Shown here in pieces: positions 3,311 to 48,505 of a stretch of DNA of 64,000 nucleotides. The position numbers were made by a program, and so were the translations under genes. The first letter of the stretch is position 1. Each line of letters starts with the position of its first letter. The stretch is from Candidatus Uhrbacteria bacterium GW2011_GWC2_41_11 (GTDB taxonomy: Bacteria; Patescibacteriota; Patescibacteriia; UBA9934; GWF2-40-263). Under the pieces are notes generated by a model, which saw nothing but the letters and a program-made list of their open reading frames with translations, was not told where the DNA came from and did no database searches. Location: positions 4,228 to 68,227 of the forward strand of contig LCAH01000003.1 of the NCBI GenBank assembly GCA_000996355.1. The letters are read 5' to 3'.

Positions 3311-3387
3311 TGGTGGGCCCGGATGGACTCGAACCATCGACTCCCGAGGTATAAGCTCGGTGCTCTAACCAACTGAGCTACAGGCCC
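3311..3387 (-). tRNA. tRNA-Ile (anticodon UAU), CCA encoded
   Basis: Reverse complement gives gggcctgtagctcagttggttagagcaccgagCTTATACctcgggagtcgatggttcgagtccatccgggcccacca. The anticodon loop cuUAUac reads AUA. Confidence 0.7.
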
Positions 3388-4976: not shown

Positions 4977-5798
4977 TTATTTGTTTTCATTCATCGCGGT
5001 TTCCATACGACGACTTACACTCCACAAAAGATCAAAAATTTGAAAAATCATTTCGCGCAATGTTTTACTTTCAATCACAAGAGCAATCCCCTCTCCTTTT
5101 GTGGTAAAAAAAGCAACCGTATCATCCCAAAAAAGAAGTGAGGATTGAAACGTACATTCCCGCGGGAGAAATTTTGCTTCCCGCAACTCTCGAACATGTG
5201 TTGTTTGCGAGTATTTTTTTATTTCTTCCATTTCGACACGCAAACTCTTCAAACGAACTCCTGCTTTCATTCGTCGTCTGGTAAAGTGAAATTTTTCTCC
5301 AAGGACTTCCTGAAATTCTTTTGCGGACACCACCTCATAAACAAGTTTGCTTTTGCATTTCAATGCATCATGTAAAACATCTGAAATACGATCTCGATAA
5401 TACACACGCACTTTTGGTGGTTCAGTTGATGTTGTTTTCAATCGTTGAAGAAATGGAACAATAGCTCCAATTTCCTCAATCTGCGTTTCAAGAATACGTC
5501 GCAAAACACTTGGTTCATCTGCTTCATATACATGGCGACTTTTGTGTTTTGTGGCGCGCACTATCCCACGCTCAACCAAACGTTTCAAAATTGATTGCAC
5601 TGTTGTGAGAGGAAGACTTGTTTTTGCCGCAAGCGGAGATAAAGTGGTTTCTCCCAAAGAAAGCAATGCGAGATACACATCTTGATCTGAATCTCGCAAA
5701 CCAAAATGATTCAAAACCTCTTGTACTTCCTTCTTTTCCAAAGACGTCCAAGGAGGATCTTTTAACATACGATTTATTTCGTAATAATTATCGAACAT
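4977..5798 (-). CDS. TrmB-family transcriptional regulator
   Basis: 273 aa. N-terminal wHTH (LSLGETTLSPLAAKTSLPLTTVQSILKRLVERGIVR) followed by a TrmB C-terminal domain. It is a paralog of 59534..60349. Confidence 0.65.
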   Translation of the reverse strand: MFDNYYEINRMLKDPPWTSLEKKEVQEVLNHFGLRDSDQDVYLALLSLGETTLSPLAAKTSLPLTTVQSILKRLVERGIVRATKHKSRHVYEADEPSVLRRILETQIEEIGAIVPFLQRLKTTSTEPPKVRVYYRDRISDVLHDALKCKSKLVYEVVSAKEFQEVLGEKFHFTRRRMKAGVRLKSLRVEMEEIKKYSQTTHVRELREAKFLPRECTFQSSLLFWDDTVAFFTTKGEGIALVIESKTLREMIFQIFDLLWSVSRRMETAMNENK

Positions 5799-5930
5799 TA
5801 TTATAGCTATCTTAAAGGATTTTTTCCAATCATCTATTTTTATTACGAAAAAAGATACTCAAAATCTATTCTCCTGATTACACTGATACCTGTCAGCTGA
5901 TGAAACATGTTCTTTCATAAGGAGAAATTC

Positions 5931-6176
5931 ATGAAAGTTATCAAGGAAGGCACCTGGAATATTCCTTGGTTTAAAGAAATTACCTGTACGACGTGTGCGG
6001 CCACACTTCTTATTGATGAAAAAGATGTAAAACCAACAACCAACCAGTCAAGAAGTTATTATTGCGTTTGCCCCATCTGTCAAAAACAGACATTCGTGGA
6101 AGAAAAACTTATTTCTCAACGGGTACGGGAAGAAGTTGATCGGAAACGGACATATTATTCCTCTTCTGAATTATAA
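5931..6176 (+). CDS. small zinc-ribbon protein (CxxC...CPxC)
   Basis: ATG at 5931 preceded by AAGGAG. Motifs TCTTC and CVCPIC. It is a paralog of the next gene. Confidence 0.45.
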   Translation: MKVIKEGTWNIPWFKEITCTTCAATLLIDEKDVKPTTNQSRSYYCVCPICQKQTFVEEKLISQRVREEVDRKRTYYSSSEL

Positions 6177-6189
6177 AAGGAGATAACTC

Positions 6190-6456
6190 ATGGCAACGGT
6201 TATCGAAGGTCCCCAGGAATGGAGTACGGTTATTCGGTGTGCTCATCCTGTCTGTGGTTTTGGACTCCATCGAGTTGAAGGATGTTTTTCTCTCATCCGA
6301 ATTACACTTGCAGATATCAAACACAGTACAGACTACGAGGGAGATACTACTTTTTGGGTCGATTGTCCTTGTTGTGGACAGCGACTCTACCCAGAATGGC
6401 AGATTGGAAAAGGTCCACTCAACAACTCAATGAAAATCAATCGCAAAACGAAATAA
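6190..6456 (+). CDS. small zinc-ribbon protein (CxxxxC...CPCC), tandem paralog
   Basis: 88 aa, RBS AAAGGAG. Shares the N-terminal VI(K/E)EG..W motif and four-Cys arrangement with the upstream sORF. Confidence 0.45.
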   Translation: MATVIEGPQEWSTVIRCAHPVCGFGLHRVEGCFSLIRITLADIKHSTDYEGDTTFWVDCPCCGQRLYPEWQIGKGPLNNSMKINRKTK

Positions 6457-6469
6457 TCGTCTTAAACTC

Positions 6470-6497
6470 GGAACTGTTCCGAGTTTTTTTCTGTTCG
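6470..6497 (+). terminator. rho-independent terminator after zinc-ribbon gene pair
   Basis: Hairpin ctcggaactgttccgag followed by TTTTTTT. Confidence 0.6.
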
Positions 6498-6578
6498 GAC
6501 AAATAAAATGGGGGACTGAACGTAATAGTTCGCAGCGTTGGCAAAATACTCTTTCATACAAAAGATTTAGTCACCGGC

Positions 6579-7268
6579 TTACTTGAATCTTTTTTCGGCC
6601 GCCGCCAGATCAACTTCCGTGTATCGACCGAAGTACTTTGTGATGTTTTTCAAATCTCGATCGAGGATGTTGCGTGCATCAGGGTGTAGTCTTTTGTCGA
6701 TTGATTGCGGAAAGTCGATGATAAACGGCTTGGATTTCCACCACAGGACGTTGTACGGAGAAAGATCGGCGTGGACGATTCCGTGCTCCCAAAAAATAAG
6801 TATACTCTCGATGATCGAGTGATAGGCAGTGGCCGCTTCATTTTGGTCAAGCTCGATATCAATCAATCGAGGCGCAACTATACCCTCATCTCCCAACAAT
6901 TCCATAAAAATAGAGTCGTCGATCTGGAGAATCGGTCGAGGAATAGCAGCCCCGGCTTCGTGAAATTTTTGGAGCATAAAAAACTCCCGCTTAATCCAAT
7001 TTTTCTGTTTCAATTTCCTCCCAAACTTGTTCTTCTTCGCAACCGCTCTCCGTGCCGACGGGCTTTTGTAAAATTTGCCAGCAAGATATTCGTAGGCATT
7101 CTGGAAACTCCGTTCCTCTGGATTTTTATACACCTTCATAGCAACTATCTTGCCGTCGAGCATGGCACGAAAGACAGCAGCCTCCTTACCTGATTTGATA
7201 TGTGAAACAACCGCTACGGTATGACCGAAGGCTTTGGCCTGCTCAATAATTTGAGAGAAATCTTGCAT
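6579..7268 (-). CDS. RIO-type serine/threonine protein kinase (RIO1-like)
   Basis: 229 aa. The catalytic loop HADLSPYN matches the RIO HGDLSEYN signature, together with the lysine region VAMKVYK. Local GC is visibly higher than the genome background. Confidence 0.65.
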   Translation of the reverse strand: MQDFSQIIEQAKAFGHTVAVVSHIKSGKEAAVFRAMLDGKIVAMKVYKNPEERSFQNAYEYLAGKFYKSPSARRAVAKKNKFGRKLKQKNWIKREFFMLQKFHEAGAAIPRPILQIDDSIFMELLGDEGIVAPRLIDIELDQNEAATAYHSIIESILIFWEHGIVHADLSPYNVLWWKSKPFIIDFPQSIDKRLHPDARNILDRDLKNITKYFGRYTEVDLAAAEKRFK

Positions 7269-7281
7269 GTTCGTTTCCTTT

Positions 7282-8336
7282 TTACTTCAATATATAGTAC
7301 GTCGCGCGACCCTTTCCAATTTTCAAGATCATTTTCAGTTTCGTTAATTTCTGCAAATGAAACTGAGCCGTGCGCCTTGGACATCGCACTACATCAATAA
7401 CATCGGTCACCGTAATTCTTCCGACGGTTTCCATGAAATCAAGAATGGCGATTTGATCCTTATCGAGAAAAACTTGTGAATTGATATCCGTATCAATCTT
7501 TTTTACCGCGAGATTCATGACGGTATGTTTGACCTGATCGATTTCTTCCTTGAATCCTTTCACAAAGTATTCGAGCCAGGGAGTGAAGTCTATTCGACGT
7601 CCCTTGTAGTTTTTACCAATGTTGATTGCGGTGTAATAAGCAGACCGATCGGTGTTATAGTAGTCCTCGATCGCAGAGAGACGACGAAAATCGTATCCTC
7701 GCTGATAAAGCACTAGCGTTGCGAGCGCCCTAGCCGTTCGGCCATTGCCATCGACAAACGGATGAATGGCGGCGATTTCCTGATGAACAATCCCTGCCGC
7801 AATGACAGGGTCGATTCCTTCGGTTTCATTATTTTGCATCCAAGCGATCAGTGCATTCATGAGCCAAGCGACCTCTTTTGCCTCCGGTGCAGTGTAGACA
7901 ATTTCCCGCCGACCGTCACGATAGTTTTTCGCAATATAAACGGGTCCTGGACGATAATGACCTGATACATCTGCCCGAAGCGTCTTGTTCGTGACGTATT
8001 TGTGGATTTGAAGAATAATTCGCTTACTGATCGTCTGTTTCTTTTCGACAACGCTTTCAATGTACTTCAAAGTTTTAAGGTAATTCTCGACCTCGTAAAT
8101 ATCTCTTTCAGGTGCATCGATTTTCTTTCGATCTGCCAACGCTTCGACCTCGCGCATGTTCAGCCGATTTCCTTCAATAGCCGTCGAACTATGGGTCAAC
8201 GGATCAATGCCTGACGACGCAAACGCAATTCCTGTTTTGGCAAAAGACGTGCCCGCTCAATGACAGCCCTCCCTTCCGCGATGGTCGTCAGCATCTGGAC
8301 AATTTTATCCGTCAGATGATATTCAGGATTAAACAT
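7282..8336 (-). pseudogene. Fic/DOC family protein (class II, SxxxEGN inhibitory motif) with apparent frameshift
   Basis: The N-terminal 49 codons (MFNPEYHLTDKIVQMLTTIAEGRAVIERARLLPKQELRLRRQALIR*) run from ATG 8336 to a TGA stop. The remainder (THSSTAIEGN...HPFVDGNGRTAR...C-terminal wHTH) continues in another frame from about 8199. Together they form a canonical ~355-aa Fic protein. Confidence 0.6.
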
Positions 8337-8494
8337 AGATAATCAGAATATAAACAACAATTTCGAATCGCGCAAGAATCGCGCAAGAAATCAAAAGGAT
8401 CTTTTAGTTCCAACAAGTCGTTTATCGTACCGAAATTTTCTATAAATACGGCGTTGGATTTTGAACCGCCAGAATGCCGCTGTTCTTACAAACA

Positions 8495-8526
8495 AAAGCG
8501 GCTTCTCATGTTGAGAAGCCGCTTTT
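8495..8526. terminator. orphan perfect hairpin/terminator-like element in divergent intergenic region
   Basis: aaagcggcttctc-atgtt-gagaagccgcttt with T-runs on both sides. No convergent gene ends here. Confidence 0.4.
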
Positions 8527-8728
8527 GGTGACCCAAGACGGATTAGGATGAAACACCTGGAAATAATAATCTAAGTATTTATTTCATTAACGATTTCTCT
8601 CAAAACAAGGCCCTACAAATGAGAACCATCATAATGAATCCCTATATCGACGATATTTTTTGTATCAATAAATCTTAAAAAGATAAGTGTTTTTTCCTGA
8701 AATATTATGTTAGAGTCATATAGACTAT

Positions 8729-9352
8729 ATGAAGCTAATCACTATAATTTTACTAATTACATTTGGTTTATTTTCTTTCGGTATTACTTATGTAAATGCA
8801 GGATTTCAACCTCCATTTGAATCTATTCGTAGTACCTGTGGAAATGAATACACACCAAATATTTGGGATGTTAAATCGTTAAAATGTATTTCAGGATGCA
8901 GTGGAATTATTTTGAAACACGATAGCGCCTATGCATCTAAATCCAAAAAACCTGATTATACAACTTCTGATTGTTCGGAAATAAACGAATGTAAAGTTAT
9001 TACTGTTAAAATTTTTAATCCACTTTGTTCACAAGCTATTAAAATTCGTTTCTCAGATGATCAAGAACAACTAGATAGTGAAATTTTTTCACCAATCGAA
9101 GGTCAAAGTCAATACTCAAATATTTATACACTTGATGGATCAACTGTTGAACTTACCATTTACGATGCAAACCAAGGACACAAATTAAAACAACTAGCCT
9201 TTGGTGTATTTTTTCTTGGTGGAATTTCATTGATTATATTTTTAGTATTTGTTCATCGTGTTGTTCTAATTATTGGAATAATTGTTATTTTTATCCTCTT
9301 GATTCGATATTTTAAAAAACGTAAGCAGAACAACAAAAAAATGAAGATATAA
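8729..9352 (+). CDS. hypothetical secreted Cys-rich protein with C-terminal TM anchor
   Basis: 207 aa with signal peptide, 8 Cys, a C-terminal hydrophobic helix and a basic tail. The locus is very AT-rich (clearly below the genome background). Confidence 0.45.
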   Translation: MKLITIILLITFGLFSFGITYVNAGFQPPFESIRSTCGNEYTPNIWDVKSLKCISGCSGIILKHDSAYASKSKKPDYTTSDCSEINECKVITVKIFNPLCSQAIKIRFSDDQEQLDSEIFSPIEGQSQYSNIYTLDGSTVELTIYDANQGHKLKQLAFGVFFLGGISLIIFLVFVHRVVLIIGIIVIFILLIRYFKKRKQNNKKMKI

Positions 9353-9543
9353 AGTAACTATTCCAATTACAAAATCATCCATGTCATTTCTTCTCTTTCC
9401 TCTTAAAATATAGATGTCCAAAAAAGACTTGAATTTTATCATCAAAAAGTTCTTCTCGAACCTCACTGTGAAGGACGAAAAAGTAGCTGAGATAAGACAA
9501 AACTCCCCTTTCAGGGAGCTCTGTTTGGACGCCGATTCGGCGA

Positions 9544-9619
9544 TGGTGACCCCACCGGGAATCGAACCCGGATTACAGGCTTGAAAAGCCCGTGTCCTAA
9601 CCGTTAGACGATGGGGCCA
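9544..9619 (-). tRNA. tRNA-Glu (anticodon UUC), CCA encoded
   Basis: Reverse complement tggccccatcgtctaacggttaggacacgggcttTTCaagcctg...gggtcacca. The D-arm is Glu-typical. Confidence 0.85.
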
Positions 9620-9797
9620 GATGATAAATGGCAGGCGAATGATAGAAAAAAATGTCTGAGTCGTCAAGTGACAAAGATGAAACAAAAATGAGAAAAAAGA
9701 ATGGATTCACATCCTGGCGCACATTTAGCATTTTGCGTTACAATGAAGTATCGGATTACTTTCCCGATTTTTTCAGAAAACGGGAAGATCTCATTCT

Positions 9798-10481
9798 TTG
9801 TCTATGCATGAATTTTTTCCCCTTCTTCTTTCTTCCTTCTTCTTTCTCTTTTGGGGTATTCTTTTCCTCTATTCAAAACAAACACGAAAAGAACAACTCT
9901 TCATGAGTTTCCTTGGTCTTCTTCTTTCTCCAGCCCTTCTCTTAACATCGATCAAAATTCAACCACCACAAACAATTCTCCCTGTTGTAGGTCTTACAGA
10001 ATTTCTTTTTCTCTTTGCTTTTTGTGGAGTTGCTGCTGTTATTTATCAAGTCATCATTGGTAATCGACTTGTTTTCATACACCGAAAACGATTGATTCTT
10101 CCATCTCGAATGATTCATTGGATTTCTCATCTCATTATTCTTCTTGGTATTTGGATCATTATTTCCCTTGTCATTCTGCTTCTTTTTCCTTTAAATTTTT
10201 CAAACGCATTCCTGATCGCAACTCTTTTCATTGGGATATATATCATTGCTGATCGTCATGATCTCCTTTTAGATGCTCTTGTTTCTGGTGTTTTTCTCAG
10301 TCTTCTTGTTTTTGCCCTTGAATATGTTTTCCGTGCTCTCTTATTTTCCACCTCAACAGAAATAACAATCGATAATTTATTGAATCCAATCGCATCAAAT
10401 AACATTCTTTGGGTCGGAATCGTTGGTTTTACCATTGGTCCCCTTTACGAATACGTTAAACATCTCCGTTTTAAAGTATAG
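9798..10481 (+). CDS. hypothetical polytopic membrane protein
   Basis: 227 aa with ~6 hydrophobic segments and no recognisable motif. The start is uncertain. Confidence 0.35.
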   Translation: MSMHEFFPLLLSSFFFLFWGILFLYSKQTRKEQLFMSFLGLLLSPALLLTSIKIQPPQTILPVVGLTEFLFLFAFCGVAAVIYQVIIGNRLVFIHRKRLILPSRMIHWISHLIILLGIWIIISLVILLLFPLNFSNAFLIATLFIGIYIIADRHDLLLDALVSGVFLSLLVFALEYVFRALLFSTSTEITIDNLLNPIASNNILWVGIVGFTIGPLYEYVKHLRFKV

Positions 10482-10497
10482 ATTCTCCCCTTGCTGT

Positions 10498-10878
10498 ATG
10501 GAAGAACAACAATCCTTTTCCGAATGTCCTTCGTGTATACCCGAACATGAAGGACAACTTTCCGTTGATATTCTGGAAGATGATCAAGCTCTTTATATTC
10601 GTTCAGCTGTCGCAGGAACACGCACGGAAGATTTAGATATTGCCATAACCTATGACACAATAACTATTCGAGGGAAACGACAACATTCCCTCCCAAAAAA
10701 TACACATACTATCATTCATCTCCAAGAATGCTATTGGGGAGAATATTCCCGTTCTGTTGTCCTCCCAAGTCATATTCAACCTGATAAAGCAGAGGCAAAC
10801 ATCCAAAATGGGATCTTGACAATCACCCTTCCAAAAGCTGAAATAACTGAACATCTTTCCATTCTTGAAATCGAATAA
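10498..10878 (+). CDS. Hsp20/alpha-crystallin small heat-shock protein
   Basis: Alpha-crystallin domain features (DILEDDQALYIRSAVAGTRTEDLDI...GILTITLPK). ATG at 10498. Confidence 0.8.
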   Translation: MEEQQSFSECPSCIPEHEGQLSVDILEDDQALYIRSAVAGTRTEDLDIAITYDTITIRGKRQHSLPKNTHTIIHLQECYWGEYSRSVVLPSHIQPDKAEANIQNGILTITLPKAEITEHLSILEIE

Positions 10879-10881
10879 AAT

Positions 10882-11112
10882 ATGTCTGAACTACCCCATA
10901 CAGTTAGTGCACATGTAAGAATAATTGAAAAAGAACGTATTACTCTCGAAATCGTGGATGGCCAGACTCTTCTATGGCCAACTCACCTTCTTCCGGAATC
11001 CATAAAAATTGGCGATCAAGTTCATCTTCTTCTTCTTGCAAAAGAAGACATTCAATCAGAACGTGAACGTCTGGCAAAATACGTCTTAAACGAAATGTTA
11101 AAAGGCAGTTAG
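10882..11112 (+). CDS. small conserved-looking hypothetical protein, co-transcribed with hsp20
   Basis: 76 aa. Starts 4 nt after the hsp20 stop. Confidence 0.35.
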   Translation: MSELPHTVSAHVRIIEKERITLEIVDGQTLLWPTHLLPESIKIGDQVHLLLLAKEDIQSERERLAKYVLNEMLKGS

Positions 11113-11130
11113 CAAAATTAACTTCTTCAT

Positions 11131-13101
11131 ATGAAATTTGGGCTTTTCCCAAAATGGATGCAATCTTCCCGTATGCTTCCTGCAGGAAATTTTTTTTTGT
11201 TCCGTTATTTTGCTATTGGAGCAGGCGTAGTTCTTGTTCTGTTTGGTATCGGAACAACAAGCGCATATGTGTGGGCTCAATCTTATGAAGGACGTATTGC
11301 TCCAAATGTAGAGATGGCAGGATTTGCTTTTGGAGGCATGGATCCGGAAATGGCACGTCAAAAACTTCAACAAACCGCTGATCATTTTCTGAATCAAGGA
11401 CTAGATATCGTGGTAAATGGAGAAAGAAAAAATGTTTCTCTCACAACAGTCGGAACAACTGAATCAGATACGGTTACGGACATGGTTGATTTCGATATTT
11501 CCACAGCCGTAGATAAACTCATGCACGCCAATCGAGATCAAAATATTTGGCCAGATTTTTTCTCTCTTGCCGGTTCACTCTTTCAAAAAACTTCTATTCC
11601 TCTGCCTATTTCTTTTCAAAAAGACACCTTTTCTCAAGCGGTACGCGACCTATTTCCAGATGAAGAAATTCCAGCAAAAAATGCAGGATTTCTTTTTCAG
11701 AAAGATGAAACAGAATGGACGATCTCTCTTTCTCATTCTACGAAAGGAACAGAGTTTATTTTTGATACAAACTTCTTTTCACAATTACAAAATCAATTTG
11801 AACATCTGAATGCTCAACCAATTGAAATTTTAGAACAACACACATTTCCATCTATTCAAGAATCAGATGTAGAACCGCTTTTTTTTGCGGCAAAATCTGC
11901 TGTAAATCAAGCTCCTTATACTCTTCTTTATCAAGAAAATAGTTTTTCTCAGCCAAAAACATGGATATTCACTCCGGAACTTCTCGCAGAAACACTCGAG
12001 CCATCACATGAATCAAATGGAACGGTTATCCTTAGCCTTTCTTTAGACCATTTGTCTTCTTTTTTTGAACCCATTATTAAAGAGATTGAAAAACAACCTA
12101 CTGATGCACGTTTTACAATCGAAAATGGAAAAGTTGTCGAATTTCAAAAAAGTGTTTCTGGCATTAAGGTTGATAAACAAGCAACTGTTCAACAAATGAT
12201 TTCCATGTTTCATACAGAAGAAAAACAAACATCTATTGTTGTTATAAAGATAGAGCCGGAAATGACAGTAGATAATGCAAATCACTTAGGAATCAAAGAA
12301 ATTCTCGGAGTGGGAACATCGAACTATAAAGGAAGCCCGACAAATCGAATCAAAAACATTCGAAATGGTGTTCGTCTCCTCAATGGTATTCTGATTAAAC
12401 CAAACGAAGAATTTTCTCTTCTTGCTGCCTTGCGACCGATTGAAATAGAAAACGGTTATTATCCAGAAATGGTTATTAAAGGAAATAAAATTATTCCTGA
12501 AGTGGGTGGTGGTCTCTGTCAAATTGGAACGACAACTTTCCGTGCAGCCATGCTTTCCGGACTCCCTATTCTTGAGCGTCAAAATCATTCACTCCTCGTA
12601 CGATATTACAATGATCCCCAAAATGGAAAACCTGGTTCTGATGCAACCATTTATGATCCGGCTCCAGATCTGCGTTTTTTTAATGACACAGAAAATACCA
12701 TTCTTTTTCAAGCCGAAATGAATGAAGAAACTCAAGATATTTTCTTTACTTTTTGGGGAATGAGCGATGGCAGGAAAGGTTCTTATACACCACCGGAAGT
12801 TCTTCGATCATTTCCTGCGGGAGAACCAAAAATGATTGAAACAGATACTCTCCCTCCGGGGAAAGAAGAATGTAAATCTGCCTTTTCAGGCGCAGATACT
12901 TCGTTTGTCTACACGATTGAACGACCGAATGGAACCAAAGATGAACAAATATTTACCTCTCATTATCGATCAATGCCGAAAATGTGTCTTGTGGGAAAAA
13001 TGCCTGTAGAAGAATCAACTCCGGAAAATGAAATAGATCCTTCCATTGAAATCACAAATACACAGGTTCCGGAAGATTCACACACAAAAACAGACGGATA
13101 A
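11131..13101 (+). CDS. VanW-family protein with N-terminal TM anchor
   Basis: 656 aa. VanW-domain region (EVGGGLCQIGTTTFRAAMLSGL) preceded by a membrane anchor and a linker. Confidence 0.7.
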   Translation: MKFGLFPKWMQSSRMLPAGNFFLFRYFAIGAGVVLVLFGIGTTSAYVWAQSYEGRIAPNVEMAGFAFGGMDPEMARQKLQQTADHFLNQGLDIVVNGERKNVSLTTVGTTESDTVTDMVDFDISTAVDKLMHANRDQNIWPDFFSLAGSLFQKTSIPLPISFQKDTFSQAVRDLFPDEEIPAKNAGFLFQKDETEWTISLSHSTKGTEFIFDTNFFSQLQNQFEHLNAQPIEILEQHTFPSIQESDVEPLFFAAKSAVNQAPYTLLYQENSFSQPKTWIFTPELLAETLEPSHESNGTVILSLSLDHLSSFFEPIIKEIEKQPTDARFTIENGKVVEFQKSVSGIKVDKQATVQQMISMFHTEEKQTSIVVIKIEPEMTVDNANHLGIKEILGVGTSNYKGSPTNRIKNIRNGVRLLNGILIKPNEEFSLLAALRPIEIENGYYPEMVIKGNKIIPEVGGGLCQIGTTTFRAAMLSGLPILERQNHSLLVRYYNDPQNGKPGSDATIYDPAPDLRFFNDTENTILFQAEMNEETQDIFFTFWGMSDGRKGSYTPPEVLRSFPAGEPKMIETDTLPPGKEECKSAFSGADTSFVYTIERPNGTKDEQIFTSHYRSMPKMCLVGKMPVEESTPENEIDPSIEITNTQVPEDSHTKTDG

Positions 13102-18711: not shown

Positions 18712-19032
18712 TTAGATCCCGAGGTCATCAACGGTCGTCTCGGCCTCTTCTGTAGAAGCTTCCGCGCTGCGCATGCGGCGGGAACCCTCTGGTTCGTAGA
18801 TCTTCAGATTAACGCGAGCGTTCTTTTTCGCTCCGACAATCTTCAGAAGTGTTCGGAGGGCGCGGGCCGTCTGACCCTGACGTCCAATGACATATCCCAT
18901 ATCCTCTGCATTGATGAAGAGGGTAATGAGAACGCCACGTTCGTCTACTGTACGCTCTGTGCGGACGTCATCAGGATGATTGACAATCGCGCGGACAACG
19001 TACTCAACGAACTCCTGGTCGATCTCTGCCAT
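18712..19032 (-). CDS. KH-domain RNA-binding protein (KhpA/YlqC-like) with acidic C-terminal extension
   Basis: GxxG KH motif VIGRQGQTARALRTLL. The gene is distinctly GC-rich relative to neighbouring trmD. Confidence 0.65.
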   Translation of the reverse strand: MAEIDQEFVEYVVRAIVNHPDDVRTERTVDERGVLITLFINAEDMGYVIGRQGQTARALRTLLKIVGAKKNARVNLKIYEPEGSRRMRSAEASTEEAETTVDDLGI

Positions 19033-19498: not shown

Positions 19499-21000
<1,502 letters not shown>

Positions 21001-21240
21001 AGGGACATTGAGAAGTTTATCTTCTCCATTCTCGGTCGAGATGAGCCTCTTCGGAGACTAATCATTGTTACGAAGACGACGTTGCAATCGCACAACATGA
21101 CAAAATCGAAAAACTCCTCTGATTCGGGGAGTTTTTCTTTATCCAAATACTTGCCTTCTTTAAGAGAAATTGATACACTCATTGCACAAAAAATGGTTGA
21201 CCTCCCTCAATTTGAACACGTGGAAGGTCTAAAATTTTAC

Positions 21241-21317
21241 GGGCGTGTAGCTCAGGTGGTTAGAGCGCAACACTGATAATGTTGAGGTCCCTGGTTCGAG
21301 TCCAGGCACGCCCACCA
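21241..21317 (+). tRNA. tRNA-Ile (anticodon GAU), CCA encoded
   Basis: gggcgtgtagctcaggtggttagagcgcaacactGATaatgttgaggtccctggttcgagtccaggcacgcccacca. Confidence 0.9.
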
Positions 21318-21334
21318 CGAAACCAATAAATTTT

Positions 21335-21796
21335 ATGAATCTGACTTTCCTGGAAACATGTTTTCGTCTCATCCTTGCAACGATTTTGTGCGGGGTTATT
21401 GGATATGAACGTGAGTATCGGCACAAACCAGCAGGTATCCGAACAAACATGCTTGTGGGATTAGGGACAGCAACCATGACTATTGTTTCCATCGAAATTA
21501 CCCAATTTGCCGGACCATCAAATGTGATAGATATTTCTCGGATTGCGTCAACAATTCTCACTGGGATTGGTTTTATTGGAGCAGGAACTATCATCCATTC
21601 TCATGACGGGGTCAAAGGATTGACCACTGCGGCGAGCATTTGGGTGGTTGCCGCAATTGGATTGGCTGTGGGAATGGGATTTTATCTTCTTGCGAGTATC
21701 ACCACGATTCTAGCCTTGATCACATTAGCCGTGATCCGAAAATTCCCTATTTCGGAAGAAAAATCTGAAGGAAAAGAGGAAAAAATGCCTGGGTAG
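21335..21796 (+). CDS. mgtC: MgtC/SapB-family membrane protein
   Basis: GYEREYRHKPAGIRTNMLVGLG...ILTGIGFIGAGTII...GLTTAASIWVVAAIGLAVGMGFY matches the MgtC N-domain consensus. The 3' end overlaps tRNA-Phe by ~10 nt. No obvious SD. Confidence 0.65.
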   Translation: MNLTFLETCFRLILATILCGVIGYEREYRHKPAGIRTNMLVGLGTATMTIVSIEITQFAGPSNVIDISRIASTILTGIGFIGAGTIIHSHDGVKGLTTAASIWVVAAIGLAVGMGFYLLASITTILALITLAVIRKFPISEEKSEGKEEKMPG

Positions 21797-21861
21797 CTCA
21801 GTGGTAGAGCAGAGGACTGAAAATCCTCGTGTCGTCAGTTCAATTCTGACCCCAGGCACCA
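21787..21861 (+). tRNA. tRNA-Phe (anticodon GAA), CCA encoded
   Basis: gcctgggtagctcagtggtagagcagaggactGAAaatcctcgtgtcgtcagttcaattctgaccccaggcacca. Confidence 0.9.
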
Positions 21862-46321: not shown

Positions 46322-47494
46322 CTATGTGCGCAAAATAGTAGATAAAATCATCCCAAGTGTTGCCCAATCAATTTCATTTTGATGAGGAGAAAGAAGATCA
46401 GAAATTTTCCAGAGTTCAATATAGGTTCGTTCTGAGTCGTTTATGACCCCGTGTACCTTTTGTTCGCGTGCCTGTTCCTGTAAACAGAAAAATTCATCAT
46501 CTGATAACTTAACGGAAAATAGATGAGCCTTATGTGCAGATAATGTTCCAGACGTTTGTCTGCTTTCGTGACAACAGACACGGCTTGGATCAAGAGATAA
46601 TCCAATTTCTTCCTTTACTTCCTCCAATGCTAAAGACAAAAAATCTTGAGGAATAAAAGAAGATCCTCCTGGAATTTCATGAATACATCCATCAGACGTA
46701 CTTGCAGGACTTCGAAATTCTCGGATAAAAACAACATCCGTATCTAAAAATGATTCAGTCTGATGATACAAAACAACAACGGAAATATCCGGACGTGCAA
46801 TGACTACTTCATTTGTTTTATGTCTATCCTCACTTGCAATGTAAATATCAACATGAAGAACCCAAAAAAATAAAGTATGTCGTTCATCTCCAGCAAAAAA
46901 TGCCCATTCCTGTTTTGCTCCATCCAGTCGATTTCCTACTTTTTTCTGTGTTTGATACCACTGTTGAAAAGAAGGAGCCTGCCAAATATGAAAAGGGATG
47001 TTGCATTCTCCCCCGGATCGAAGAGTCCCTTCACCGATTTTAGCGACTGCGGTTGCAATCGTTTCAGACAATGTATGATTTTGTGGAATAAATAACCGAT
47101 CTGCATAAAAACTCAGATATCGATTATGGTCAGATTCCGGAGGAAATCCCAAAACGACTTTTCCAGATCTTTCCCAACGACCGAATTCAATATTGGTTGT
47201 GAGACCAGGAAGCGTTTTCATGTTACGCGGGATCCAAAACAGAATGATGTCGGAACGATTGAGGGCTTCATCTTCCCAGCGAACCTGATCCTCAAAAGAA
47301 GGCCATTTTTCATCACGTGGTTCTGGAACAAAAACAACTCCTTCATATCCTTGCTCTTCCAAAATACGAAGTGCTTCCAAACGCCAAGAAACAACATCCG
47401 ATGTTCTTGATGTTGGACCTGCTAAAAAAAGAGATTGTTTGAATGCGGTTGGAAGAGGATCAGTCGAATAAACAGGAATCATAAAATATTTCAA
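46322..47494 (-). CDS. fusion protein: nucleoside 2-deoxyribosyltransferase/DNPH1-like N-glycosidase domain + Nudix hydrolase domain
   Basis: N-domain: LFLAGPTSR ... SDIILFWIP ... LTTNIEFGRW resemble the N-terminal Rossmann and catalytic-Glu motifs of nucleoside 2-deoxyribosyltransferases. C-domain: Nudix box GGSSFIPQDFLSLALEEVKEEIGL. Confidence 0.55.
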   Translation of the reverse strand: MKYFMIPVYSTDPLPTAFKQSLFLAGPTSRTSDVVSWRLEALRILEEQGYEGVVFVPEPRDEKWPSFEDQVRWEDEALNRSDIILFWIPRNMKTLPGLTTNIEFGRWERSGKVVLGFPPESDHNRYLSFYADRLFIPQNHTLSETIATAVAKIGEGTLRSGGECNIPFHIWQAPSFQQWYQTQKKVGNRLDGAKQEWAFFAGDERHTLFFWVLHVDIYIASEDRHKTNEVVIARPDISVVVLYHQTESFLDTDVVFIREFRSPASTSDGCIHEIPGGSSFIPQDFLSLALEEVKEEIGLSLDPSRVCCHESRQTSGTLSAHKAHLFSVKLSDDEFFCLQEQAREQKVHGVINDSERTYIELWKISDLLSPHQNEIDWATLGMILSTILRT

Positions 47495-47674: not shown

Positions 47675-48505
47675 ATGTTTCACGCGACTGCCCCACGCCA
47701 CGAAACCACCAATTTTGTCGCTCTCGTCAGCGACCTCGAAGGGTTTCTTTTCAACGGAATCCTCGGTAGGTCACTAACCAAACGACAATATCCCGCGATC
47801 GACAGCGAGTTGATCGCGGCGCGACGAGCCTTCCGCAACGATCCGACCGGTCTCGAGGCGTTCAACAATGCCCGATTCTCGGCCGGCGAGGATGAACTCG
47901 AAATCTACCAGGTTTCGAGCGATATCGTTCTTGCCTGGTACGCCGAGTATCAGGCCGAGCAGGCTCACAAAGCCGCGGAGCTGGCCGAGATCGAGGCAGC
48001 CAAGCAGCTTGCTGCTGAAACCGCTCGAATCGAGGCCGAAAAGCTCGAGGCTGAGCAGAAGGCTGCTGAAGCCAAGGTTGAGCAGGAACGGCAGGCGAAG
48101 ATGCGTCGCAACGCCCTGCTCCAGGCCGGAGCCGTCTGTACGTGTGGCAACTGTCACACGCAGATGGTTGTCCGATATGGACGTTTGCCGTCCGTCGGAT
48201 TCATGCGGCAAGAGCTCGGTCGCGAGCCGACTGTGGCGGATCTGACGAAGTTCGTCCGGTTCGCAGGTCACGCTGGTTCGCGAGGATATCCGTTCGAAGA
48301 TATCCTCGACGAGGTTCTCTCAAGTGAGAATCAGGCGACCCCGGCTGCTCCGAAATCGACGGTGCAGGCAAAGCAGCCGGCGGCCGCCCAGTCGATGTTC
48401 CGCAAATCAACCACCACCCCCCCGGCCAAGGCTGAAAAACCGCGGTCGGTCAGTGGATTCGGAAGCCTGGGGAGTCTCTTCCCCACGGTTGCCAAAATTT
48501 TCTAA
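47675..48505 (+). CDS. GC-rich (~60%) hypothetical coiled-coil protein with CxCGxC motif; likely horizontally acquired
   Basis: 276-aa ORF whose composition is very different from its flanks. A/E/K-rich heptad segment and CTCGNCH. Several overlapping antisense ORFs are open-frame artefacts of the high GC. Confidence 0.55.
   Translation: MFHATAPRHETTNFVALVSDLEGFLFNGILGRSLTKRQYPAIDSELIAARRAFRNDPTGLEAFNNARFSAGEDELEIYQVSSDIVLAWYAEYQAEQAHKAAELAEIEAAKQLAAETARIEAEKLEAEQKAAEAKVEQERQAKMRRNALLQAGAVCTCGNCHTQMVVRYGRLPSVGFMRQELGREPTVADLTKFVRFAGHAGSRGYPFEDILDEVLSSENQATPAAPKSTVQAKQPAAAQSMFRKSTTTPPAKAEKPRSVSGFGSLGSLFPTVAKIF

Follow-up and report, generated by a model that had tools for sequence, protein, structure and literature searches.

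A Candidatus Uhrbacteria locus as a probable composite: a TrmB-linked pair of zinc-ribbon mini-proteins beside a Fic and RIO kinase operon

The RIO proteins usually found in bacteria belong to the RioB subfamily, whose role there is unknown (PMC5815136), and the SoFic proteins are toxic AMP-transferases (AMPylases) that act in abortive infection and anti-phage defence (PMC12249575). Zinc-ribbon mini-proteins of the four-cysteine (C4) kind are represented by Pfam Zn_ribbon, the haloarchaeal HVO_2753-like proteins, DUF7479 and phrog_2834, and the TrmB family of regulators includes curated sugar-sensing equivalogs. Genes that resemble each of these stand next to one another in a 64-kb stretch of a contig (LCAH01000003.1) from Candidatus Uhrbacteria bacterium GW2011_GWC2_41_11, and we refer to this whole stretch as the window. 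A first-pass annotation had taken two small open reading frames (ORFs), a RIO-type kinase gene and a Fic gene as an islet of elevated G+C content (GC), possibly a laterally acquired or archaeal-derived cluster of protein-modification or toxin-like genes.

Our analysis favours a different arrangement, to which we assign a probability of roughly 70%: the region consists of two unrelated modules lying side by side, and not of one cluster. Module 1 (~4977-6490) is a Patescibacteria cassette in which a TrmB-family regulator is divergent from an operon of two zinc-ribbon mini-proteins, here called ZnR1 and ZnR2. Module 2 (6579-8336) is a two-gene operon, Fic then RIO kinase, that is rich in GC at third codon positions (GC3). 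All four of the genes first flagged are real; the islet itself is an ordinary juxtaposition, and the only moderately new element in it is the TrmB/mini-protein cassette, together with the NUDIX gene that goes with it in relatives. The window, with its 16S rRNA gene and 11 tRNA genes, is bacterial, and the exact sequence of ZnR1 is deposited as UU48_C0003G0012 from Candidatus Uhrbacteria bacterium GW2011_GWF2_41_16 (Patescibacteria / Candidate Phyla Radiation). The features, in window coordinates, are as follows.

4977-5768, minus strand: TrmB-family winged-helix regulator, 263 amino acids (aa); the mechanical ORF runs to 5798
5768-5783: perfect palindrome TACGATTTATTTCGTA, of the form TACGA-N6-TCGTA, abutting the trmB start codon
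5931-6176, plus strand: ZnR1, A-type zinc-ribbon mini-protein, 81 aa
6190-6456, plus strand: ZnR2, B-type zinc-ribbon mini-protein, 88 aa
6464-6486, plus strand: terminator-like hairpin, a 10-bp stem then a T run, ending the mini-protein operon
6579-7268, minus strand: RIO-domain gene, intact, 229 aa
7282-8336, minus strand: Fic gene, whole, in two overlapping frames
7282-8199, minus strand: main Fic ORF, 305 codons from TTG
8196-8336, minus strand: N-terminal Fic fragment, 46 codons, with a TGA stop
8729-9352, plus strand: low-GC gene, 207 aa
9544-9618, minus strand: tRNA-Glu(UUC)

The mini-protein operon is convergent to the kinase and Fic genes, with the terminator-like hairpin between them, and the two sets of genes do not accompany each other in relatives. 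Ten independent mini-protein contexts were compared, the window included (the others are L087, L089, L091, L092, L093, L103, L104 and the contigs of P0127 and P0144, where L- and P-numbers are labels for the compared loci and for proteins or contigs of relatives), and neither a RIO kinase nor a Fic gene lies beside the mini-proteins in any of the nine contexts other than the window. When the kinase is taken as the centre, neither Fic nor the ZnR2 motif occurs within ~6 kb at any of 85 kinase loci other than that of the sister strain. A conserved zinc-ribbon-RIO-Fic linkage was therefore not seen in these neighbourhoods, and the four-gene cluster of the first-pass annotation is not upheld. Composition was informative as well. 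Segment 6579-8340 has a GC of 0.452 versus 0.393 for the window (z 1.68, top 6% of same-length windows), a level equalled at the same length only in the rRNA region and at 46.5-49.9 kb, and the deviation lies in third codon positions: GC3 is 0.51 in the kinase gene and 0.48 in Fic compared with a median of 0.27 for 61 ORFs; the GC1 and GC2 of both genes are ordinary. The higher GC that had been noticed is thus confirmed for this segment and not for the small ORFs, whose GC3 values (0.33 for ZnR1 and 0.35 for ZnR2) are unremarkable, and for this reason the islet reduces to the kinase and Fic only.

Because family alignments begin at MKV, the start of ZnR1 is placed at 5931 and not at 5907; the sequence AGGAG precedes it 6 nucleotides (nt) upstream. 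ZnR1 belongs to the A-type group, whose members start with MKV(I/L)K.G, and ZnR2 carries an LYPEWQIG motif. Direct pairwise comparison of the two is weak (BLASTP E 0.005, 20% identity), and the comparison of A-type with B-type profiles gives a probability of 90.5% (E 1.4e-6) and brings the W, one conserved Asp and all four cysteines into register. A 22-sequence family alignment, which includes intermediates between the A and B types, has M1, C19, C22, D32, C47, P48 and C50 (ZnR1 numbering) invariant. The earlier suggestion that the 81-aa and 88-aa ORFs are tandem paralogs is borne out by the profiles and this alignment, and, as far as sequence can tell, ZnR1 and ZnR2 are real, conserved genes and distant paralogs of each other. 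The CxxC...CPxC pattern that had been read in both products describes ZnR1, with C19, C22, C47 and C50 as its putative zinc ligands, and does not describe ZnR2: there the conserved candidate ligands of the family are C17, C32, C59 and C62, which align with those four positions of ZnR1, and C22 varies.

Conservation of the small ORFs, which the first-pass annotation had raised as a check on their reality, was confirmed. The ratio of nonsynonymous to synonymous substitution rates (dN/dS) in the B-type group is 0.09-0.24 where computable, dS being saturated, and the family is under purifying selection. Nine clusters of ZnR2 homologs are 57-69% identical to it over full length and 62-78% over the best local alignment. 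A word-indexed search with ZnR1 matched ZnR1 alone; its ortholog at L093:1515-1775 has 44% identity, and the KRTYYSSS tail is found in both. When 1.84 billion cluster representatives were scanned in full with HMMER, only 45 proteins were detected at E<=1e-3, of which 21 were at E<=1e-10. All matches of the mini-proteins to Pfam, NCBIfam and PHROG fell below threshold (three family members match phrog_2834 weakly), the PADLOC defence-system models gave no mini-protein match, and structure and fold searches returned no significant neighbour. In AlphaFold2 models both proteins have four strands and a C-terminal helix in the same topology, with confidence scores (predicted local distance difference test, pLDDT) of 85 for ZnR1 and 76 for ZnR2.

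We regard the mini-proteins as predicted C4 zinc ribbons that no curated family includes. They resemble the known C4 mini-proteins named above in their length (~80-90 aa), in a predicted architecture of four invariant cysteines, two knuckles and a four-stranded sheet, and in their occurrence both in cellular genomes and on a phage-like contig. They differ from them in the first knuckle, which in most members here is an extended C-x9-14-C loop, in the conserved M(K/A)(K/V)(I/V)..G..W N-terminus and the C-terminal helix, and in a genetic setting that combines near-exceptionless A/B pairing, a TrmB with a fixed operator and a link to NUDIX.

The TrmB regulator matches Pfam TrmB (PF01978) at 2.1e-13, with 50.3 bits versus a cut-off of 25.6, and its start is probably at 5768 (263 aa), because the position of the palindrome implies it and the gene is called at the same length in the sister strain. 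It resembles other TrmB-family regulators in its N-terminal winged helix-turn-helix, whose score exceeds the Pfam cut-off, in being transcribed divergently from its presumed target genes and in the palindromic site nearby; unlike the curated sugar-sensing TrmB equivalogs it scores far below every cut-off for them. The gene lies divergently upstream of the mini-protein genes in eight of the ten contexts (L087, L089, L091, L092, L093, L103, the P0127 contig and the window). The columns of the TACGA-N6-TCGTA palindrome are invariant across the intergenic regions of seven lineages, where it is found beside the trmB start; it occurs nowhere else in the 64-kb window, where 0.00 occurrences are expected by chance, and every one of 15 TrmB/mini-protein loci (15/15) has it once, compared with none of 89 other loci. 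We infer that TACGATTTATTTCGTA is the TrmB operator. A tRNA-Ile gene with the anticodon TAT (UAU) is called by ARAGORN at 3311-3387 on the minus strand, 1.6 kb from trmB, and the same call is made in the distant relative L103 (3737-3811), directly beside trmB; a UAU isoleucine anticodon is unusual for bacteria.

Nearly every context examined has both A-type and B-type genes, which form arrays of two to five members in variable order. One protein, P0141 (L103:5001-5477), is a B-A fusion, and in one case (L089:6176-6874) a NUDIX hydrolase carries a fused A-type domain. The operon that contains the latter (L089:5001-6874) has five tandem members, one B-type then four A-type, the last of which is the NUDIX-fused one. 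A second NUDIX fusion was considered in P0144 and rejected, the C-terminal 200 aa of that protein being not recognisably NUDIX. A NUDIX gene follows the mini-protein genes just downstream in six of the ten contexts, and these linked enzymes are closest, with a match below threshold, to the ADP-ribose pyrophosphatase domain of NadM-Nudix proteins. In L092 the NUDIX gene of the cassette is directly followed by tRNA-Glu(UUC); in the window, the genes between ZnR2 and tRNA-Glu are the kinase, Fic and the 207-aa gene. Orthologs of the L087 flank (VanW, HSP20 and a membrane protein) are present in the window at 9798-13101. The idea of a NUDIX remnant beside the mini-protein genes was rejected, because a search of the window with the NUDIX proteins of relatives found no match near them; its sole match was weak (E 8e-4), to a NUDIX-like stretch that falls within 46322-47494.

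A distant B-type and A-type pair also occurs at L104:5001-5541, in a phage-like one-directional array with no TrmB and no palindrome, which encodes in addition an RNA ligase (phrog_548, 1.7e-45), a DNA ligase, a dCMP-deaminase-like protein and a KTSC-domain protein. This suggests that the mini-protein pair also travels on Patescibacteria phages. A scan of viral contigs for relatives of the ZnR2 family and of Fic found none; the A-type alignment was too variable to yield a search pattern.

From these observations a working model for the cassette can be drawn. TrmB would bind TACGA-N6-TCGTA and thereby control its own gene together with the mini-protein operon, as the conserved operator and the divergent layout imply for both promoters. 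The A-type and B-type proteins would form a zinc-dependent heterodimer that works with, or regulates, the ADP-ribose-pyrophosphatase-like NUDIX enzyme, a proposal to which the natural fusions and the near-constant pairing lead, and the basic C-terminal helices of the mini-proteins give a hint of nucleic-acid or nucleotide binding. In the present genome the NUDIX enzyme is no longer encoded at the locus. The larger proposal, namely that TrmB, its operator, the A/B mini-proteins and (usually) NUDIX make up an undescribed functional system of Patescibacteria and their phages, with the A/B heterodimer as a NUDIX sensor or adaptor, is a tentative one that we hold to be possible and less than likely. 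Full-text searches of the literature gave no paper on a TrmB/NUDIX/zinc-ribbon cassette in this phylum.

In module 2, the RIO gene matches Pfam RIO1 (PF01163) at 1.6e-39, with 135.9 bits versus a cut-off of 22, and contains the HADLSPYN motif, so that the RIO1-like kinase which had been read on the strand opposite to the small ORFs stands. Its residues 11-217 align to Archaeoglobus fulgidus Rio1 (1zp9, E 6.5e-26), and S26, G27, K28, K45, H166, D168, N173 and D185, the invariant residues of a 31-sequence alignment, are all kept. The best NCBIfam model is that of the PA4780 family of RIO1-like proteins (2.2e-51); the score of 174.7 bits, under the 350-bit equivalog cut-off, makes the kinase a relative and not an equivalog and thus points to a separate Patescibacteria clade. 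Like the RIO kinases of PF01163, RioB and the PA4780 family it has a single RIO domain, in which the ATP-binding loop SGKEA, K45, the catalytic loop HADLSPYN and the metal-binding motif IDFPQS are kept, and it is without an N-terminal winged helix; in bacteria the gene is a stand-alone one. It differs from known RIO kinases in its atypical GC3 and in its position 13 nt downstream of a Fic gene. We consider it, on its motifs, an intact single-domain bacterial RIO kinase/ATPase of the RioB kind, which is common in Patescibacteria. Its role in module 2 would presumably be the general role of bacterial RIO proteins.

Relatives of the kinase were matched in 2510 clusters, the best 120 of which are 42-98% identical to it; the named clusters among those best 120 are all from Patescibacteria, including Uhrbacteria, Liptonbacteria and Amesbacteria. 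Kinase relatives are also encoded in at least 596 stretches of species-representative genomes, including Pseudomonas, Paraburkholderia, Chloroflexi and Thermotogae; the relatives listed in that scan are mostly proteobacterial, and the Patescibacteria contexts come from single-protein look-ups. The statement that RIO kinases are rare in bacteria has to be given up in view of these numbers: with so many bacterial relatives and with RioB documented, they are not rare there and the kinase is not recently archaeal. PADLOC gives only weak generic kinase matches for the gene. The contexts of the kinase gene in Patescibacteria are all mutually different, and in other genomes it stands alone. In several Patescibacteria loci (L001-L004, L082-L084, L100 and L101) its GC is off that of the flanks by 0.03-0.09 in either direction, and the gene could often be exchanged between lineages. 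The sister strain (L081) is 99.7% identical to the window, with 13 differences in 4.3 kb, too close for dN/dS; the differences are 4 nonsynonymous and 1 synonymous in the kinase, compared with 0 and 4 in neighbouring genes (Fisher p 0.048). One of the differences is P196H in the kinase of L081, at a position where 27 of 29 homologs keep the proline. Taken together the strain differences hint weakly that constraint on the insert may be relaxed, which would fit with a broken Fic.

The Fic gene was recognized correctly at first pass; it has the motif HxFx(D/E)GNGRxxR (present as HPFVDGNGRTAR) and a Pfam Fic match of 2e-18. A 1-nt frameshift that splits it, at 8196-8199, had been missed. The TGA of the N-terminal fragment overlaps the TTG of the main ORF as TTGA. 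Conceptual repair by one base yields a 351-aa Fic that aligns unbroken to PDB 4rgl_A across the junction (residues 2-268) and matches PADLOC SoFic at 2.1e-54 over model positions 41-350 of 361; the 305-aa ORF by itself scores 69.5 bits on NCBIfam SoFic, far under the 550-bit equivalog cut-off. In class II Fic proteins the inhibitory motif (S/T)xxxE(G/N) lies N-terminally on the same chain, and here STAIEGN occupies residues 5-11 of the 305-aa ORF. A C-terminal winged helix is also present (DIP2311-like_C, 3.1e-5). The frameshift, reproduced in four assemblies, is not an assembly artefact, because other assemblies carry the same sequence: an identical 60-mer spans the site in two of them (L094 and L095), and L099 is 100% identical across it. 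On direct reading of the sequence no slippery heptamer is found at the site, and for this reason a programmed frameshift was rejected as the primary reading. The TTGA overlap of the 46-codon and 305-codon ORFs has the geometry of termination-reinitiation. With SoFic (PADLOC SoFic; PDB 3eqx and 3zcn) the gene shares STAIEGN, HPFVDGNGRTAR and the C-terminal winged helix; it differs in being split into ORFs of 46 and 305 aa and in being followed by a kinase gene where a short AS1-like gene has been described (PMC12249575). We take it, from its motifs and its broken frame, for what looks like a degraded SoFic-type class II member, inactivated or at least split, and it may be a split gene that is still live. 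A tandem repeat of 11 nt, with GAATCGCGCAA in two copies, lies upstream of Fic at 8365-8386.

The separation of Fic from the kinase by 13 nt, in the same direction and with the same unusual GC3, indicates that the two probably arrived together. They would have been acquired together from a higher-GC relative, with Fic now decaying. Their acquisition by this lineage is plausible, because they are compositional outliers and sit where relatives carry NUDIX; those relatives, which have NUDIX and not the kinase and Fic at this position, are only distantly related, and rearrangement has affected the region as well. The lateral acquisition proposed in the first-pass annotation can therefore be retained as plausible for the kinase and Fic, and is to be set aside for the mini-proteins, which have a native-like composition and belong with TrmB.

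Several observations weigh against the two-module reading as a whole or against parts of it. The flanks of the Fic-kinase segment hold no att-like direct repeat, only short matches at chance level, and there is no integrase among the genes examined and no other mobility signature flanking the segment. A native-looking KhpA-like gene at 18712-19032 has a GC3 of 0.58, so that high GC3 alone is no proof of foreignness. The local order differs from that of relatives by rearrangements that go beyond a single insertion, and the non-linkage of Fic and RIO was counted from the kinase side only (85 kinase-centred loci). Two mini-protein contexts, the phage-like L104 and the P0144 contig, are without TrmB, and the biochemical role suggested for the mini-proteins is drawn solely from fusions and gene order. 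In addition, there is no sign of an insertion at a tRNA gene end, since tRNA-Glu lies 1.2 kb from the Fic-kinase segment with another gene between.

Some of these same points would be expected if nothing had been acquired, the kinase and Fic being native genes whose higher GC comes from amino-acid or codon constraints peculiar to each gene. The kinase family occurs widely in Patescibacteria, its GC departs from that of its flanks in both directions elsewhere in that group, the apparently native KhpA-like gene is also high in GC3, and mobility signatures were not found. We nevertheless judge a native origin unlikely, because the deviation is mainly one of GC3, with GC1 and GC2 ordinary, and is shared by both adjacent genes, because in relatives it is NUDIX that follows the mini-protein genes, and because SoFic-type genes are defence genes, which in general are reported to move often by horizontal transfer (PMC13223576).

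The close spacing, shared direction and shared atypical GC3 of Fic and the kinase can also be read as the mark of a functional pair, in which the kinase modulates or neutralises a SoFic-type toxin, comparable to AS1 downstream of E. coli Sofic, and the 46-aa and 305-aa products are active by way of TTGA termination-reinitiation. There is precedent for an antitoxin downstream of Sofic (PMC12249575), and neither Fic ORF has any other defect: all motifs are kept, and the stop and start codons overlap. Such a pair is improbable in our estimation: Fic is found at no other kinase locus (0/85), where a frameshift has no slippery sequence a young pseudogene is the simplest account, and the nonsynonymous strain differences of the kinase are in excess. 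Full-text literature searches, moreover, gave neither a paper on a Fic-RIO association nor one that names Fic, RIO kinase and AMPylation together.

That ZnR1, ZnR2, the RIO kinase and Fic are one laterally acquired protein-modification or toxin-like cluster working as a unit might be argued from the adjacency of the four genes within 2.4 kb, the raised GC over part of the region, and the fact that Fic and the kinase are both nucleotide-dependent protein modifiers. We consider this very improbable in the face of the two sets of contexts (0/85 and 0/9), the ordinary GC3 of the mini-proteins and the conserved operator region that they share with TrmB, and the convergent gene sets with a terminator-like hairpin between. 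Least credible of all is a recent transfer of an archaeal Rio1 gene into this bacterium, as the fame of RIO kinases from archaea and eukaryotes and the alignment to 1zp9 might suggest, since the named kinase relatives at 50-77% identity and the named clusters in the best 120 of 2510 are from Patescibacteria, the proteobacterial, Chloroflexi and Thermotogae relatives are 34-42% identical, the kinase scores higher with the bacterial PA4780 model than with the haloarchaeal model of Rio1 (174.7 versus 112.5 bits), and RioB is a documented bacterial subfamily (PMC5815136).

Other features of the window were recorded in passing. A search of 5700-9700 with Rfam at permissive thresholds yielded the tRNA only. 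Upstream of Fic, a perfect 16-bp inverted repeat between A and T runs, resembling a bidirectional terminator, lies at 8493-8527. The 207-aa ORF at 8729-9352 (plus strand) has a GC of 0.29 and a GC3 of 0.16, with hydrophobic N- and C-terminal segments and no family match, so that opposite compositional extremes are adjacent here, the GC-rich insert beside this ORF, and then tRNA-Glu. At 19499-21861 tRNA-Ile(GAT) and tRNA-Phe come after the 16S rRNA gene; the window has no 23S gene, and the rRNA genes are therefore unlinked. The KhpA-like KH-domain gene just upstream of 16S has an overall GC of 0.54. The strongest compositional outlier in the window is a 276-aa ORF at 47675-48505 (plus strand), with a GC of 0.59 and a GC3 of 0.66 compared with a genome GC of 0.39. 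Its Ala/Glu/Lys-rich, coiled-coil-like product contains a CTCGNC motif, gives no Pfam and no Rfam match, and is encoded between a nucleoside-deoxyribosyltransferase-like gene and a sigma-70 gene.

The analysis removes a tempting wrong reading of this region as an archaeal-like kinase-Fic-zinc-ribbon toxin island. It shows RIO kinases as routine stand-alone genes in Patescibacteria, and it records a SoFic-type defence gene while it is decaying. Of more use is a by-product, a mini-protein family of very small size that is absent from all curated libraries and for which there are clean comparative clues in the A/B paralogs, the A-B and A-NUDIX fusions, the invariant operator with TrmB and the phage-like copy. 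Few regulators or small proteins have been characterised in Patescibacteria, and the cassette offers a concrete set of regulator, operator and targets together with a candidate NUDIX partner. If a TrmB/mini-protein/NUDIX system of this kind is true, it might serve nucleotide or NAD/ADP-ribose signalling, or the conflict between these bacteria and their phages.

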